The notes under the pieces are model-generated. The model saw only the letters and a program-made list of their open reading frames with translations. It was not told the origin of the DNA and did not search any database. A DNA stretch of 64,000 bases. Origin: Escherichia phage HY01. The position numbers and the translations under genes were made by a program. Location: sequence record NC_027349.1; one strand, 5' to 3'. Positions 40,035 through 63,579 of this stretch are shown here, piece after piece. The first letter of the stretch is position 1, and each line of letters begins with the position of its first letter.

Positions 40035-40505
40035 TTAATCATGTTTCCACACCCCATCGGTATTTGACCAAAGTCGCTGATTATCTGAACCTCGCCACAG
40101 CTTTTTGGTCGGAAGATTTTTCTCATACTTCCCATCAATAATAACATCAACATATTTAAGCATTTCTAGTTGTTTAATATCTTCAAACTTATATCCTGTC
40201 CACAACCAAATGCTTTTATTCGGATAAAGATTTTTTACCGTTTGAACAATGCAATGAACATCATCTCGGTTATCAGGATAAAGAGGGTCTCCTCCAGTTA
40301 TAGTTAATCCTTCTATATAATCATTATTCAAACATTCAATTAATTGTTCTAGTGTTTCACCAGTAAATGGAACGCCATTTCTAGCATTCCATGTTGATTT
40401 ATTATAACACCCTTCACATTTATGCAAACACCCCGTAACGAAAAGAACGACCCTGCATCCAGGGCCATTCACAAAATCACAGGGATAAAATCTATCGTAA
40501 TTCAT
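40035..40505 (-). CDS. nrdG: anaerobic ribonucleotide reductase activating protein (radical SAM)
   Basis: 156 aa with CxxxCxxC-type cluster (GCLHKCEGC). Confidence 0.88.
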   Translation of the reverse strand: MNYDRFYPCDFVNGPGCRVVLFVTGCLHKCEGCYNKSTWNARNGVPFTGETLEQLIECLNNDYIEGLTITGGDPLYPDNRDDVHCIVQTVKNLYPNKSIWLWTGYKFEDIKQLEMLKYVDVIIDGKYEKNLPTKKLWRGSDNQRLWSNTDGVWKHD

Positions 40506-42319
40506 TGGTGTTTAACCCTATGCATGATTTCTTTATTTTTGCCAAGATTAAATCCGCGTTCGTTCGGATTTCCCAAATAGCCACATGTTCTTCTTATTGT
40601 GTTCATCTTTTTAGGATCAGTTTCTCCACAAATAGAACAAACAAATCCGTTTTCAGTAGGAGTCATTTCATGGGTACTTCCACACGTAAAACATTTATCT
40701 ACTGGCATATTAACACCAAAATAATCTAAATGTTGTGCAGCATAATCCCATACAGCCTCAAGGCCTTTTAAGTTATTTTTCATATCAGGAAGTTCAACAT
40801 AAGAAATGTGACCACCTGTCGCAATGAAATGATACGGTGCTTCGCGAGAAATCTTTTCAAATGGAGTAATATTTTCTTCTACTGAAACGTGGAAACTGTT
40901 AGTGTACCAGCCTTTATCAGTAACATCTTTTACACTTCCATATTTTTCGGTATCAAGTTTACAGAAGCGATAGCACAGGTTTTCAGCAGGAGTAGAATAC
41001 AAACTAAAAGCAAATCCGGTTCTTTCTGTCCATTGTTTAAGATGAGTATTCATTTTAGTTAAAATTTCTTGCCCAATATCACGACCGACAAGAATATTCA
41101 ATTCGTGAATACCAATGTATCCTAGGGACACTGAACTTCTACCGTTTTTAAATAACTCAATTATATCGTCATCAGGTTTAAGACGAACCCCGAATGCACC
41201 TTCTTGGTAAAGAATAGGAGCAACAGTAGCTTTAACTCCTTTTAAGGAACTAATTCTACACATCAATGCTTCAAAACATAAATCCATTCGCTCATTGAAC
41301 AATTCGGCAAATTTCTGTTCATTGAACTGTGTTCCAATATAAGAATCTAGCGCAATGCGAGGAAGATTCAGTGTTACAACACCAAGATTATTACGTCCAT
41401 CAAGAATTTCATTACCAGTCGAATCTTTCCATACACTCAAGAAACTACGACAACCCATTGGAGAAACAGGAATAGATGAACCGGTGATAGCTTTATTGTT
41501 CTTAGCCGAAATGATGTCAGGATACATTCTTTTACTTGCACACTCTAGAGCAAGCTGCTTAATATCATAGTTCGGATCGTCTTTATAAAGATTAACACCT
41601 TCTTCAACGAACATAACAAGTTTAGGGAAAATAGGAGTTATCCCGTCACGACCAAGGCCTTTAATACGATTTTTCAGAATTGCTTTCTGAATCATTCGTT
41701 CAGTCCAGTCAGTTCCCGTACCAAATGTAATTGTTACAAAAGGCGTTTGTCCGTTTGAACTAAAGAGAGTATTTACTTCATATTCATAAGCTTGGAATGC
41801 ATCGTATACGTCTTTTTCTGTTTTAGATTGGGCATAATTCAACGCATCAGCGATTTGCCATTTTTCTGCATCCTCAATATGTTTTGCATAGGTGCGTTTA
41901 ACATAAGGAGAAAGTACTTTATCTACATTCGCAAAAGTCGTTCCACCGTATTGATGGGAAGCAACCTGTGCAGTAATTTGTGCCATAATTGCAGTAGCAA
42001 CGCCGATTGATTTAGGAGTTTCAATCTGTGCATTACCGAGCTTAAATCCGTTCTCAAGCATTCCTTTTAAATCTACTAAACAGCAATTAGTAAATGGAAG
42101 AGCAGGGGAATAATCAATATCATGGAAATGAATAATTCCGCTTTCATGCGCTTTCATAATAAAAGACGGGACCATATTTTTGGCAATGTGTTTAGACACA
42201 ATACCAGCCATAAGGTCCCGTTGAGTTGGAAAAACACGAGAATCTTTATTAGCATTCTCGTTTAAAAGGTCTTTATTAGTTTTATGAATCAATCCTTCAA
42301 TTTCTTTTTCAATTGTCAT
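40502..42319 (-). CDS. nrdD: anaerobic ribonucleoside-triphosphate reductase (glycyl radical enzyme), uninterrupted
   Basis: 605-aa contiguous ORF with C-terminal glycyl-radical motif RTCGYLG and Zn ribbon CFTCGS...CSICG. Confidence 0.93.
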   Translation of the reverse strand: MTIEKEIEGLIHKTNKDLLNENANKDSRVFPTQRDLMAGIVSKHIAKNMVPSFIMKAHESGIIHFHDIDYSPALPFTNCCLVDLKGMLENGFKLGNAQIETPKSIGVATAIMAQITAQVASHQYGGTTFANVDKVLSPYVKRTYAKHIEDAEKWQIADALNYAQSKTEKDVYDAFQAYEYEVNTLFSSNGQTPFVTITFGTGTDWTERMIQKAILKNRIKGLGRDGITPIFPKLVMFVEEGVNLYKDDPNYDIKQLALECASKRMYPDIISAKNNKAITGSSIPVSPMGCRSFLSVWKDSTGNEILDGRNNLGVVTLNLPRIALDSYIGTQFNEQKFAELFNERMDLCFEALMCRISSLKGVKATVAPILYQEGAFGVRLKPDDDIIELFKNGRSSVSLGYIGIHELNILVGRDIGQEILTKMNTHLKQWTERTGFAFSLYSTPAENLCYRFCKLDTEKYGSVKDVTDKGWYTNSFHVSVEENITPFEKISREAPYHFIATGGHISYVELPDMKNNLKGLEAVWDYAAQHLDYFGVNMPVDKCFTCGSTHEMTPTENGFVCSICGETDPKKMNTIRRTCGYLGNPNERGFNLGKNKEIMHRVKHQ

Positions 42320-42789
42320 TTTAAACTCTTTCTAAGCTGCTTCTTAAATGAAGCTATTAATTGTGTTTTAGTGTCAGATTCATTATATTCAAATCCTCTT
42401 TGAAGCATCTCAGCCATCATTTCCTCTTTTCCTAAACGAGAAAATTCCTTTGATTTATCTCCAACGAAGTTAGGGTGAATATTATTTTGGGTGTAATCGG
42501 ATTTTAAATAAGTAAGTAAATTTTCTAACCATTCAAGATAATCAACACCTTGTCCCTTTAAGCCAGAACGATTAAATTTATGCTTCATTTGACCTTCTGC
42601 AGCATTACAGAGATTACACAGCAACCCACGTACCTTTCCTGCTTTTGGTCCATTTAATTCATGGTCATGGTCAAGGTGATTAGCTTGAACATCAGGATTT
42701 AGTTCTCGTTGGCAAATTAAGCATTTACCGTTTTGTGCATTATAAAATTTTTGTTTTTCTTCTTTGTACAATTTGCCAGTCAATAACAT
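42316..42789 (-). CDS. 49: endonuclease VII (Holliday junction resolvase)
   Basis: 157 aa; essentially matches T4 endo VII as recalled (MLLTGKLYKEEKQKFY...CLICQRE...). Confidence 0.9.
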   Translation of the reverse strand: MLLTGKLYKEEKQKFYNAQNGKCLICQRELNPDVQANHLDHDHELNGPKAGKVRGLLCNLCNAAEGQMKHKFNRSGLKGQGVDYLEWLENLLTYLKSDYTQNNIHPNFVGDKSKEFSRLGKEEMMAEMLQRGFEYNESDTKTQLIASFKKQLRKSLK

Positions 42790-58873: not shown

Positions 58874-59411
58874 TTACTATTTCCAACAGTTTATTATTTT
58901 TAAGGTAGTTAGCCTTTTCTAGGACTTCAGAAGCATATTTAGAACCTGCTTTAACATTCCATCCCGAATTATAAGAGGATATTGCCTTTCTTATATCGCC
59001 CTTATGTATATTTAACCAATAAGAAAGTTCAATGTACGCCCAGGAAGCTGAATTGGACCGTTTATTCAACATTCTTTTTATTTCAGCATCGGTCATATTA
59101 TAACCAAGTTCCTTAACTCTTGCTCGCATGGTCGGCAAATAATTTTGGAACATTCCATAGGCATGATGCTTTGGTTTAGATTTTAAATTAACTCCGGCAG
59201 AGCTTTCTTGCCATAAAATAGCAGCCATTATATGACCTAATCCACTCTTGTGGATATTTTTGTGTGTTTTATATTTTCCATCCTTAGAAAATTGTTCCCC
59301 GAATTGATATGCGTAACGCATGTTATCGAGTTGGACATTACTGAAAGTATGCTCGGAGCTATGTGCCATCATTGAAATGGCCAATAGACCAGCGAGTAGT
59401 GCTTTTCTCAT
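58866..59411 (-). CDS. secreted lytic transglycosylase-like protein (SLT domain)
   Basis: 181 aa with signal peptide and SLT motifs (LWQESS, AYGMFQ, SYNSG). Confidence 0.6.
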   Translation of the reverse strand: MRKALLAGLLAISMMAHSSEHTFSNVQLDNMRYAYQFGEQFSKDGKYKTHKNIHKSGLGHIMAAILWQESSAGVNLKSKPKHHAYGMFQNYLPTMRARVKELGYNMTDAEIKRMLNKRSNSASWAYIELSYWLNIHKGDIRKAISSYNSGWNVKAGSKYASEVLEKANYLKNNKLLEIVND

Positions 59412-59418
59412 GCTTACC

Positions 59419-59880
59419 TCATTGAGTTTTAATTACTGCTTTAGAAGCCTTTCCTGGTAAACGACGACTGTTAATAATTGCCATCCTGCACTGAAGCGAC
59501 GGGTCTTTGAACTTCGCATTAGGTTTACAAACTGTAAATCCAAGCCAAAGATTTCCATCTGTGATTTCTAAACGCCCAGGACGATATTCAACCCCATCAA
59601 TAAAATCCTCGTCAATGTCAGGACGCGGAGGCATACTCAGGAATTCATTAACTTCTAAAACATGGTCTTTTATTTTGTGGAATAATTCAAAAACATATGT
59701 CTCATCAATCTCCCGTTGAATTGCACGATCAAGAAGATGTTGAGAATATTTTAGATGAAACGATGAGACCCCTGCTGCTTTTGATGCCTCACGAATCTCA
59801 TTGTTAATTTGACGAAACTCCGACTCAAAGTGACGACGGAGCTTATTTCGACGGATAAAAACTTCTGTGTTGATAGTCAT
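59419..59880 (-). CDS. regB: RegB endoribonuclease
   Basis: 153 aa; matches T4 RegB as recalled. Confidence 0.88.
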   Translation of the reverse strand: MTINTEVFIRRNKLRRHFESEFRQINNEIREASKAAGVSSFHLKYSQHLLDRAIQREIDETYVFELFHKIKDHVLEVNEFLSMPPRPDIDEDFIDGVEYRPGRLEITDGNLWLGFTVCKPNAKFKDPSLQCRMAIINSRRLPGKASKAVIKTQ

Positions 59881-59939
59881 GTTATTCTCCTCTTAACTGA
59901 TAGAAAAATTATACCACAGTCAAGAGGAAAAGTAAACAG

Positions 59940-60260
59940 TTATTCTTTAAATCTAATCAATTTATTCATAGACTTTGAAACTTCTGCACGAACCTCATGT
60001 AGGTTTTTGAGCTGTTCAAGACGCTGCTCATAGTAAGCAATTTCATCTTCTTCGAGACAGTCCTGTGAATCTTCTTTAAGATAACGTGCATAGTCCTGGA
60101 AAGCTTTACGGACTACTTCCTGGAAGTCATCAAGACTTTGAATTTTCTTAGGAGCAACAGATACACGACGAGGGGCAGTATAATACTCATAACCAAACCC
60201 TACGCTTAATTGAGCCATTAATATTTTTCCTCTGGTTGGAACACAGCACGACAAGCCCAC
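59940..60260 (-). CDS. vs.3: hypothetical protein
   Basis: 106-aa ORF. Confidence 0.4.
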
Positions 60261-60484
60261 ATACTGGCTTCTTTGAGTTTCGTTTTAGCAATAGTTAACT
60301 GATCGAGGCTTTCAGCATAATTCTTTGCGAATTCACAGTCTTCACAATTATCCAGTGCTTCCCAGAATTCATCATATAAAGCATCAAAGATAAGTCCTAA
60401 ACGAACTTCAGCGTCTTTGATAGCATTCACTTTACCGATTTTCTCTTCAGTGTGCGGCTTATAACCTTTAATGTCTTCAATCAT
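60218..60484 (-). CDS. hypothetical acidic protein (vs.4 position; Acb2-like by synteny only)
   Basis: 88-aa ORF two genes upstream of regB. Confidence 0.4.
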
Positions 60485-60698
60485 ATTCTACTTCCTCACC
60501 TGTTCCCAAATCATATTCAACTAAACGAATAGGCTCATGAATGCCATATCCTTGAACAGAAATTTCTGTCGTAGGATAAATTCCATTAATATCACCCATG
60601 TTCCACGCTTCATTAAATTGCTGTTCGCCTGAATTACTAAACCACTCGGCGAAAGCATTTAGCACATCTTTAGAACCTTCAATAATTATCTTTGCCAT
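60477..60698 (-). CDS. hypothetical small acidic protein
   Basis: 73-aa ORF. Confidence 0.4.
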   Translation of the reverse strand: MAKIIIEGSKDVLNAFAEWFSNSGEQQFNEAWNMGDINGIYPTTEISVQGYGIHEPIRLVEYDLGTGEEVEYD

Positions 60699-61060
60699 TA
60701 CAAACTCTCAGTAAAGGTACGAGCGATAACGTCGCGCTGCTGTTCCGGAGTCAGAGAGTTAAAGCGAACTGCATATCCGGATACACGGATGGTCAGCTGC
60801 GGATATTTTTCCGGATGCTTAACTGCATCTTCCAGAGTTTCACGACGCAGAACGTTTACGTTCAGGTGTTGACCACCCTCAATTTTAACTGTAGGCTGTG
60901 TTTCAATTTCAATTTCACGGGCATGCAAACCATAGAAAATTTCTGGGTCTACAAAAGAGTCCTCTTTAAAAGTTTTAGAGACAATAATTCGTGCTTGAAT
61001 ACCGTCTTCAAAATAAATAGTACCTTTATGCGTGCCTTCAAGAATTTGATATGCTTTCAT
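60698..61060 (-). CDS. autonomous glycyl-radical cofactor (GrcA/YfiD-like)
   Basis: 120 aa; C-terminal about 60 residues [61 protein letters not shown] match E. coli GrcA as recalled. Confidence 0.8.
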
Positions 61061-61070
61061 ATAACCCCTC

Positions 61071-61451
61071 TCAATTAGAAAATAAATTTATCCAAGATTG
61101 CTCTTTAATTAAAAATGGCTCAGAATCATATGCCATTAAACTTTGGGTAATTAGTCCTTTAAAAGGCCCATCAATAAATTCCATGGTAAAATATGGAATT
61201 TTATTCATTAATCTTGCATTAGGAGCAGTGCATAAAACTCTGCATCCTTTGAATACACCTTTTTGTAATTTGTATTGCTTAGGATAAAATTCACTCAAGA
61301 CGTTGTTATTTGCCAAAATTTCAAAATGATTCACCAATTTATTTTTAATAGTTTTTGGCGAAAAATAAAGATATTCGAAAAGTTGCGTGTCTGTCATCAT
61401 TGCATTCCGATTATGAAAAACTGTGGACGAGTAATACCACCAATGCAACAT
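61071..61451 (-). CDS. hypothetical protein
   Basis: 126-aa ORF (start probably internal). Confidence 0.35.
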
Positions 61452-61984
61452 TTACTATTGCAACAGTGGTGCACAGTTTCAATATGAATATCGTAAATTT
61501 TATCCATATCAGGAGATTTAACAGGCTCATCAATTATATACAAAATCCGCGAAAGCGATAAACCTCTGAACTTGCTTCCTTTATTACCGATAAAACTACG
61601 GACAGAATCGGTAAATAAGCGGAATCGAATATCATCGCCAGAATAACGAGAAAATTCTTTTTTAATGTGGCCCGCAGAAATTTTAGCGTAAGCTGAAGTA
61701 TTAGAAAGAACAATAACTGTTCCACCATCATACAGCCAATTAGCAGCAAAGTTAGTCACAGCAGTTGATTTACCGGATTGTCTGCCACCATCTAATCGAA
61801 GTGTGCAATACTGCTTGAGTAAGTCTTCAAATGGTGGGATATAATCGTTTTTACAAATTTCTTCTACTCTAGCATCAGAATGGTGTGTAAAAGCATTCAT
61901 CAGGGATAGATAAGGACCAGTTAAAAATGTTCTCATTTTATTCTCTCTAAATTTGGGCCATTCCATGGCGCATGAATTGTCCAT
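61397..61984 (-). CDS. P-loop NTPase-like protein
   Basis: 195-aa ORF with Walker A GGRQSGKST and a Cys cluster HHCCNSKCC; start may be the internal Met near 61936. Confidence 0.45.
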   Translation of the reverse strand: MDNSCAMEWPKFRENKMRTFLTGPYLSLMNAFTHHSDARVEEICKNDYIPPFEDLLKQYCTLRLDGGRQSGKSTAVTNFAANWLYDGGTVIVLSNTSAYAKISAGHIKKEFSRYSGDDIRFRLFTDSVRSFIGNKGSKFRGLSLSRILYIIDEPVKSPDMDKIYDIHIETVHHCCNSKCCIGGITRPQFFIIGMQ

Positions 61985-62089
61985 TTCTGTATTTACCCAT
62001 TACCGCACTTGGGCTCGACCTTATTACAGGTTGGCGGGAATCCCTCACAGAATCATGAGGTCCAGGTTGTTCCCATATTTCTTATTTGC

Positions 62090-62563
62090 TTATTTGAATG
62101 ATTTAACGTACTGAATAGAACCTTTACTATTTACAAAGGCAATTTTACCATTTTTATTGTACATAGTAGCAGTACGCTGATAACCATAAGTTTGTTTACC
62201 AGATTGATAACCAACTAATGCGAAATTATCTTCGCCCATTTTATTCTGTTTAGCGCGGATGCGTTCATGACCGTGTGCCATAAGAACCTTAGCATCACCA
62301 GTTGAAATTGATCTACGAGTTTTTTCATCTTCAACTGTATTAACAAAGTCGTCAAATGAATCAAATTTAGCATGGGATTTATTATACAGTTTTCCATCTA
62401 CTGCATAATTATATCCCTGTACATCCATCTCAACTTCTGTACCATCATCCAATACAGCAGTGATTTTTTGACCTTTTTTAAATTTCAAAAGATCAGTAAA
62501 AGATTCAGCAATAATTTGAGAATTAATAGCTGCTTCAGTGATAAATTCTTGATATGTTTTCAT
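62090..62563 (-). CDS. capsid-targeted internal protein (IP family), distinct from T4 IPII/IPIII
   Basis: 157 aa beginning MKTYQEFITEA (capsid targeting sequence consensus); between denV and e. Confidence 0.65.
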   Translation of the reverse strand: MKTYQEFITEAAINSQIIAESFTDLLKFKKGQKITAVLDDGTEVEMDVQGYNYAVDGKLYNKSHAKFDSFDDFVNTVEDEKTRRSISTGDAKVLMAHGHERIRAKQNKMGEDNFALVGYQSGKQTYGYQRTATMYNKNGKIAFVNSKGSIQYVKSFK

Positions 62564-62572
62564 ATGTTTCCT

Positions 62573-62989
62573 TTAAATGTAAATATTTTTGCCGTAATAC
62601 TTGTACCAGTGTGGCTTCATTAAAATTTTTTTATCGAGTCGTTGTTGACTCAATTTAATAGCTGATTTGCATGGATTATAATCATTTTTCCATTCTGCTG
62701 GAATATCGCTGATGTCAGGAACTTCAGTATCTTTTATACTAAACCCACGTTTTAAGCATTCCATTATAATGTCTGATTGACGCTTTCGCAAAAATTCTAA
62801 CTTGTCGTAAAAGAACGTAACATGACCAGAACCTAAAATAAACTCGGAAGATATTTTAAAATCTTTAACCCGCTTACCATTTGCCACGTGTTTACGAACT
62901 ATACCAAAAACGCGTGGCAATTCACGGTATTCTGCGATTAAATGTTGATCAGCAAGTTCAGATACTAAAGTCAAATTAATACGAGTCAT
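62573..62989 (-). CDS. denV: endonuclease V (pyrimidine dimer DNA glycosylase)
   Basis: 138 aa [17 protein letters not shown]...; matches T4 endo V family. Confidence 0.9.
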
Positions 62990-63048
62990 TTTATCCCTCC
63001 AAGTAACTGTGAATATACTATCACAATTCTAGGAGAAAGTAAACCACT

Positions 63049-63579
<531 letters not shown>

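Follow-up and report, generated by a model that had tools for sequence, protein, structure and literature searches.

The closest described relative of the gene considered here is vs.6 of bacteriophage T4. Its product, Y06I, receives a glycyl radical from the activase of pyruvate formate-lyase (PFL) and rescues oxygen-cleaved PFL in vitro (Wagner et al. 2001, BBRC 285:456, pmid 11444864, cited through PMC8683613 and PMC13450708). In the latter two sources, Y06I and E. coli YfiD (GrcA) are given as the only two biochemically validated 'spare part' proteins. Conservation of vs.6 among T4-like phages and its match to the Gly_radical family were reported by Nolan 2006 (PMC1524935). Homologues of GrcA are widespread in phages (1587 phage records), and the gene appears in T4-type records under the names vs.6, 'pyruvate formate-lyase' and 'autonomous glycyl radical cofactor GrcA'; in RefSeq, the phage orthologues already go under the name GrcA. 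The gene and the function of T4-type vs.6/Y06I are thus known biology, as the original prediction for this DNA had also held. Here we compare the copy found in Escherichia phage HY01 (NC_027349.1) with these systems, using a stretch of 64,000 nucleotides, hereafter the window.

Identity of the gene and its neighborhood

The gene occupies 60698..61060 on the minus strand, an open reading frame running from ATG to TAA (stop included) that encodes 120 aa. It shares with T4 vs.6 the position between regB and denV, the length of 120 aa, and a C-terminal stretch of 60 residues that is identical to the host protein. The predicted T4 homolog therefore exists, and it differs from the window protein by a single substitution, T54P (119/120 residues identical). 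At the DNA level, synonymous differences from T4 vs.6 were found at codons 61 (GAG in the window gene), 68 (GTA), 95 (GGA), and 118 (GAG). The T4 genome contains only one such gene. A match to phrog_1209, the orthologous group of T4 vs.6, extended over residues 1-120 (5.4e-63). Over the 3.2 kb around the gene (59400-62600), identity was 100% to the Tequatrovirus PEC04, an Escherichia phage (KR233165.1), and 97-98% to many other T4-type phages.

Profile searches supported the proposed assignment to the GrcA/YfiD-type autonomous glycyl-radical proteins. Pfam Gly_radical (PF01228) was matched with E=2.2e-18 (67 bits, cutoff 22), and the best NCBIfam family was TIGR04365 GrcA (E=1.4e-45, profile positions 25-126). 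With 154.6 bits, the protein stays below the curated equivalog cutoff of TIGR04365 (170 bits) because its N-terminus has diverged. The RVSGYAV loop comprises residues 92-98, and the radical glycine is G95, corresponding to GrcA residue 102; its codon (60776..60778, minus strand) is GGA in the window gene vs. GGT in E. coli, a synonymous difference. BLASTP against E. coli GrcA (WP_000627804.1) gave E=9e-53, with residues 61-120 aligned to GrcA 68-127 at 60/60 identity, so that the claimed identity of the C-terminal 60 residues, including the radical loop, held in full. In a search of the PDB, GrcA (6OWR) scored 4.6e-42 and PFL (1H16) 4.8e-26 over residues 58-120; HMMER bit scores were 146 for 6OWR and 94 for PFL, which makes PFL the closest match after GrcA itself, with the PFL matches confined to the last 63 residues.

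Compared with E. coli GrcA (YfiD; 6OWR; TIGR04365), the vs.6 protein thus has the same radical loop, a similar size (120 vs. 127 aa), and a homologous N-terminal region. The two differ in that region: identity over the N-terminal 60 residues is only ~26-35%, and the phage protein is 7 residues shorter there. The NSFWLLD motif conserved in bacterial GrcA is absent from vs.6, and the gene belongs to a lytic phage. The C-terminal glycyl-radical domain of PflB (1H16, residues 697-759) is of the same fold family and carries the same RVSGYAV loop; unlike PflB, the vs.6 product is a small stand-alone protein (~14 kDa) without a catalytic barrel, flanked by separate phage genes on either side, and its DNA donor is grcA.

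The surroundings of vs.6 correspond to the T4 cluster regB-vs.1...vs.8-denV; the gene lies between vs.7 and vs.5, in synteny with the annotations of T4, Shfl2, and ime09. It starts 10 nt past the stop codon of the upstream vs.7, preceded by a GAGGGG ribosome-binding site, and its TAA shares one A with the ATG of vs.5 (TAATG, a 1-nt overlap). The vs.5 homolog (60477..60698, minus strand; 73 aa; phrog_1986, 2e-42; annotations of PEC04 and Shfl2) has no known function. Given the short distance to vs.7 and the overlap with vs.5, the genes are probably polycistronic, and vs.5 is probably co-translated or co-transcribed with vs.6. A scan of 59300-63200 counted 16 promoter-like sites, a number within the range expected (13.5 +/- 4.4), and found no terminator on the minus strand of that interval.

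Several further observations concern the neighboring genes. Two genes downstream of vs.6, the vs.4 homolog (60218-60484, minus strand, 88 aa) matched the Pfam Acb2/Tad1 hairpin domain (7e-20), the family of anti-CBASS sponges for cyclic nucleotides to which T4 Vs.4 belongs. The vs.8-like ORF (61397-61984, minus strand, 195 aa) contains a Walker-A-like GGRQSGKST motif and is weakly similar to phrog_2, the family of terminase large subunits (4e-6); phrog_1488, the family to which it belongs, has no known function. In the GenBank record of PEC04, four genes within window positions 59940-61984 are labeled 'endoribonuclease RegB domain-containing'. Among the genes scanned, which included three of these four, Pfam REGB_T4 was found only at 59419-59880 and in 0/3 of the genes with the label, and the RegB labels look spurious. 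The context of grcA homologs also differs among phages: the gene adjoins a homing endonuclease in JSE, and lies among tRNA genes in the T5-like phage Spc35 and in Aeromonas phage 31.

A host-derived tract within an old phage gene

The two halves of vs.6 differ sharply in composition. Codons 1-60 (60881..61060, minus strand) are AT-rich and phage-type, with a GC content of 0.33 and a third-position GC content of 0.20, and their DNA is ~50% identical to E. coli grcA. The N-terminal half had been predicted to be phage-specific, which was not borne out: an hhalign comparison of the N-terminal halves of 12 phage and 21 bacterial proteins gave a probability of 96.4% (E=1e-9) over 62 columns in a full-length alignment, and BLASTP of the vs.6 N-terminal half against that of bacterial GrcA found 35% identity (E=2e-6). 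This half is thus a diverged GrcA N-terminal homolog, and its dN/dS of about 0.16-0.2 between phage genera marks it as under purifying selection. Since the N-terminal halves are homologous, the gene is best read as an old GrcA homolog along its whole length, with a 3' half that appears to have been overwritten later, and not as the fusion of a captured module to an N-terminus of phage origin.

Codons 61-117 form a tract of 171 nt (60710..60880, minus strand) that encodes the glycyl-radical domain and is near-identical to the DNA of E. coli grcA. Within it, the window gene showed 2/171 mismatches to the allele of E. coli FDAARGOS_497 and 3/171 to that of SK1144 (168-169/171 matching), so that the nucleotide comparison with host grcA proposed in the original prediction came out in favor of host origin. 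GC content steps from 0.33 to 0.50 at the start of the tract, and its third-position GC content is 0.45; the values for E. coli grcA are 0.50 and 0.43. Both boundaries are sharp, at codon 60/61 and at codons 117-118. The last three codons with the stop (60698..60709, minus strand) read GAG AGT TTG TAA and are phage-type in their synonymous states, as E. coli has GAA AGC CTG; the host tract therefore ends before them, and the sequence past the vs.6 stop is phage-type again.

A match to grcA was present in 5426/5426 complete E. coli genomes at 95-99% identity (97.3% over 185 nt); the similarity is therefore not due to chance, and the radical glycine motif is present in vs.6. Among 81 bacterial grcA genes, that of E. 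coli was closest to the 3' segment of vs.6 (174-175/180 nt). The gene next closest to E. coli grcA was that of Citrobacter amalonaticus (166/180, ~92%), and the phage tract is nearer to E. coli than is the grcA of any of the 80 other species, a set assembled without K. pneumoniae. For this reason we place the donor in the E. coli/Shigella lineage and the direction of transfer from host to phage. The DNA evidence directly shows that the C-terminal module is host-derived. Of the claim that the phage captured a host module, the part concerning the C-terminal half thus stands (168-169/171 nt and the step in GC content), and the implied fusion to an unrelated phage N-terminus does not. The gene for PFL itself, pflB, was also considered as DNA donor and rejected, as it is grcA that matches at 95-99% in every E. 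coli genome; a related tract from a Klebsiella phage reaches only ~83% identity to E. coli pflB.

A block of 171 nt that is ~99% identical to the host within a phage genome of 35% GC resembles a chimeric assembly, and near-identity could in principle also reflect contamination or a transfer from phage to host. We regard these explanations as having next to no probability. The block is in frame and begins at the same 5' boundary in 631 independent phage records, T4 and T2 included, and phage sequence adjoins it at either end inside one ORF. As for transfer into the host, the divergence of E. coli grcA from that of other enterobacteria (~92% to Citrobacter) fits vertical descent, and in GC and third-position GC content, the tract resembles the remainder of the host gene and departs from the phage gene. 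Transfer from host to phage within an existing phage gene, our preferred reading, is the one followed below.

The 3' end of the gene varies among close relatives, in which the last three codons occur in nearly every mixture of host-type and phage-type states (GAA/GAG, AGC/AGT, and CTG/TTG/CTA). Such mixing suggests that the end of the tract has undergone heteroduplex repair in short patches or has recombined repeatedly. Preservation of the phage-type last codons as a Shine-Dalgarno sequence for vs.5 was considered as well, and is a weak candidate, as T4 has GAA where the window gene has GAG.

Taken as a whole, the gene is very probably the Tequatrovirus ortholog of vs.6 (T4 Y06I), a 'spare part' of the GrcA type whose radical-domain half has been replaced by host grcA sequence.

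Age and probable recurrence of the conversion

The T4 tract is 176/176 identical to the grcA of some E. coli strains, e.g., SK1144. Codons 61-117 of T4 and of L101, a Mosigvirus-like contig, each showed 0/171 differences from the SK1144 allele, and those of Shigella phage Shfl2 showed 0/171 differences from that of FDAARGOS_497. The tracts of these two strains, the two alleles sampled, differ only by GTT/GTA, and the same site varies among phages, with T4 matching the GTT and Shfl2 the GTA allele. Between T4 and L101, the 5' half contains 18/180 differences (dS 0.39), whereas the tract contains 0/171 (dS 0; Fisher p=5e-6). By this measure, the tract is much younger than the split of Tequatrovirus and Mosigvirus.

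Across the phage collection, identity to E. coli grcA was bimodal, with 631 records at >=95%, 14 at 90-95%, and 862 at <=90%. If the tract is copied from the current host, Klebsiella DNA is foreseen in T4-type phages of Klebsiella, and this was what we found: identity to K. pneumoniae grcA was 95-97% in 80 records, most of which are Klebsiella phages with genomes of about 166-168 kb, and one of them, Nispero, was ~87% identical to E. coli grcA. Codons 61-112 of KPV15 were identical to K. pneumoniae strain 176 at 155/156 positions, starting at the same 5' boundary (codon 60/61). The tract of KP179 is shorter or older, and its codons 61-92 contain 3/96 mismatches. Of the 21 sites separating K. 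pneumoniae from E. coli, KP179 agreed with the former at 14 and with the latter at 4, and the E. coli phages agreed with E. coli at 19-21. The difference extends to the protein, as Klebsiella phages carry the Klebsiella-type RRETLLDAVEH where E. coli phages carry E. coli-type residues.

Three irregularities were noticed in the database records used. The IMG/VR copy of KPV15 contains a 1-nt frameshift near codon 43 that splits the vs.6 frame, through an error in sequencing or because the gene is a pseudogene there. In PLSDB, the label 'plasmid unnamed2' is given to CP125156.1, a K. pneumoniae chromosome of 5.37 Mb, which supplied the K. pneumoniae grcA for the comparisons above. Finally, NZ_JBQPOM010000029.1, labeled Vagococcus sp. 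WN89Y, carries an enterobacterial grcA with 91% protein identity to E. coli and is probably mislabeled or contaminated.

Other lineages lacked a recent host tract. In Karamvirus, Slopekvirus, Pseudotevenvirus, Krischvirus, T5-like, and Aeromonas phages and in one jumbo Yersinia phage, identity was 63-88%, where some lineages, e.g., the Cronobacter phages, were set against the grcA of hosts other than their own. The GrcA homologs of T5-like (Demerecviridae), Aeromonas, Vibrio, and jumbo phages are the same two-part protein with a conserved radical domain, but their DNA is 63-80% identical to any host grcA sampled, which argues against a recent host-copied tract there. A survey of 80 IMG/VR loci included six Tequatrovirus or Mosigvirus-like contigs, few because the collection is dereplicated, and the other lineages were without near-identical tracts.

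These comparisons indicate a recurrent host-to-phage gene conversion, the likely donor being E. coli for Tequatrovirus and Mosigvirus and Klebsiella for Jiaodavirus. The term 'recurrent' comes with two caveats: it depends partly on one polymorphic E. coli site (GTA/GTT), at which parallel mutation is possible, and the identical tracts of Tequatrovirus and Mosigvirus could reflect phage-to-phage exchange after a single host-to-phage event. The sequences show vs.6 to be old and vertically inherited, with a 171-nt radical-domain segment that has been replaced by host grcA through homologous recombination. The replacement is recent and appears to have taken place at least twice (from E. coli into Tequatrovirus/Mosigvirus, and from Klebsiella into Jiaodavirus). 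We lean toward the view that this half of the gene is repeatedly overwritten from the current host by homologous recombination during infection, possibly with selection for compatibility with PflB/PflA.

The shared 5' boundary marks the point, at a conserved block, from which the two genes, host and phage, are sufficiently alike for recombination. T4-type phages degrade host DNA, and their homologous recombination is very active, which makes short conversion tracts from host fragments mechanistically plausible. We found no mention of a host tract in the DNA of vs.6 in the literature covered, which excluded key T4/GrcA sources, so that it may have been noticed earlier.

Proposed function and relation to the phage ribonucleotide reductase

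Based on its 119/120 identity to T4 Y06I, we infer that the window protein can be given a radical and can rescue PFL. During infection, the host PFL-activating enzyme PflA would install a glycyl radical on G95, and the activated protein would dock onto host PflB whose radical domain has been cut off at G734 by oxygen. PFL activity would thereby be restored, and under anaerobic conditions or fluctuating oxygen, pyruvate would be kept flowing to acetyl-CoA and formate. The formate could then serve as reductant of the class III ribonucleotide reductase NrdD of the phage. A literature search for the in vivo phenotype of a vs.6 mutant returned nothing.

Perfect mimicry of a host domain could be of use to a competitor no less than to a helper. 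The protein could thus be a decoy that soaks up PflA or blocks the docking site on PflB, thereby shutting down or redirecting host fermentation. Its N-terminal half is strongly unlike that of host GrcA, and the GrcA N-terminus influences radical installation. This half is nevertheless still GrcA-homologous and under purifying selection, every phage lineage examined has retained the radical glycine and its loop, and T4 Y06I is reported to restore PFL activity in vitro and not to inhibit it. We therefore consider a decoy function very unlikely and retain the rescue of host PFL as the working model.

The phage also encodes a glycyl-radical enzyme of its own. Pfam confirmed nrdG (40035-40505, minus strand; Fer4_12 and Radical_SAM), the activase, and nrdD (40502-42319, minus strand; NRDD, 3e-171, and Gly_radical), a class III formate-dependent ribonucleotide reductase, in agreement with the coordinates predicted for the pair (40035-42319). 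Gene 49 (endonuclease VII, Pfam 1.5e-33; 42316-42789, minus strand) overlaps the start of nrdD by 4 nt, and the order 49-nrdD-nrdG recurs in the annotations of many related phages.

The presence of NrdD and NrdG raises the question, implied in the original prediction, of whether vs.6 is a spare part for the oxygen-cleaved C-terminus of NrdD, perhaps activated by NrdG. Every vs.6-bearing phage group among the matches listed carries nrdD, and some phages have both genes close together; in the Yersinia jumbo phage fHe-Yen9-04, for example, the grcA homolog lies two genes after nrdD. Nolan 2006 (PMC1524935) suggested a role in nucleotide metabolism, and reviews speculate on spare parts for other glycyl-radical enzymes. 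Our comparisons spoke against such a repair. The best BLASTP alignment of vs.6 with the phage NrdD had E=6.1 and left the radical loops unaligned, and a ribonucleotide reductase was found in 0/33 of the PDB sequences matched at E<=0.001, which were GrcA, PFL, and PFL-like enzymes, with GrcA and PFL on top. The radical domain is 100% identical to host GrcA and then closest to PFL, which fits a partnership with host PFL/PflA, and the experimental support described in PMC8683613 and PMC13450708 is for PFL rescue only. Repair of NrdD is thus, in our judgment, very improbable. A metabolic link seems more plausible to us, since PFL makes formate, which class III ribonucleotide reductases use as reductant (Mulliez 1995, as cited in PMC4493059), and formate from PFL could feed NrdD. 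The co-occurrence of vs.6 and nrdD and their closeness in fHe-Yen9-04 fit such a link; against it, many NrdD-bearing phages are without vs.6 (2912 vs. 1587 records).

The gene itself is textbook-level, and the new point is the probable recurrent, host-specific gene conversion of its radical-domain half. In the DNA mosaic, recombination between a strictly lytic T4-type phage and the host chromosome inside a shared gene can be seen cleanly and can be dated, with tracts that equal extant E. coli or Klebsiella alleles and with seemingly independent events in different phage genera. It provides a natural marker for the frequency of short-tract exchange between lytic phages and their hosts, and possibly a signature of the recent host for T4-like phages. 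The co-occurrence with nrdD suggests a metabolic logic in which PFL is kept alive and formate becomes available for anaerobic dNTP synthesis. If the proposed conversion is true, the 'spare part' of the phage would stay an exact copy of the part used by the local host, a host-tracking gene conversion, and would make a case for asking whether matching the protein version of the host is selected.
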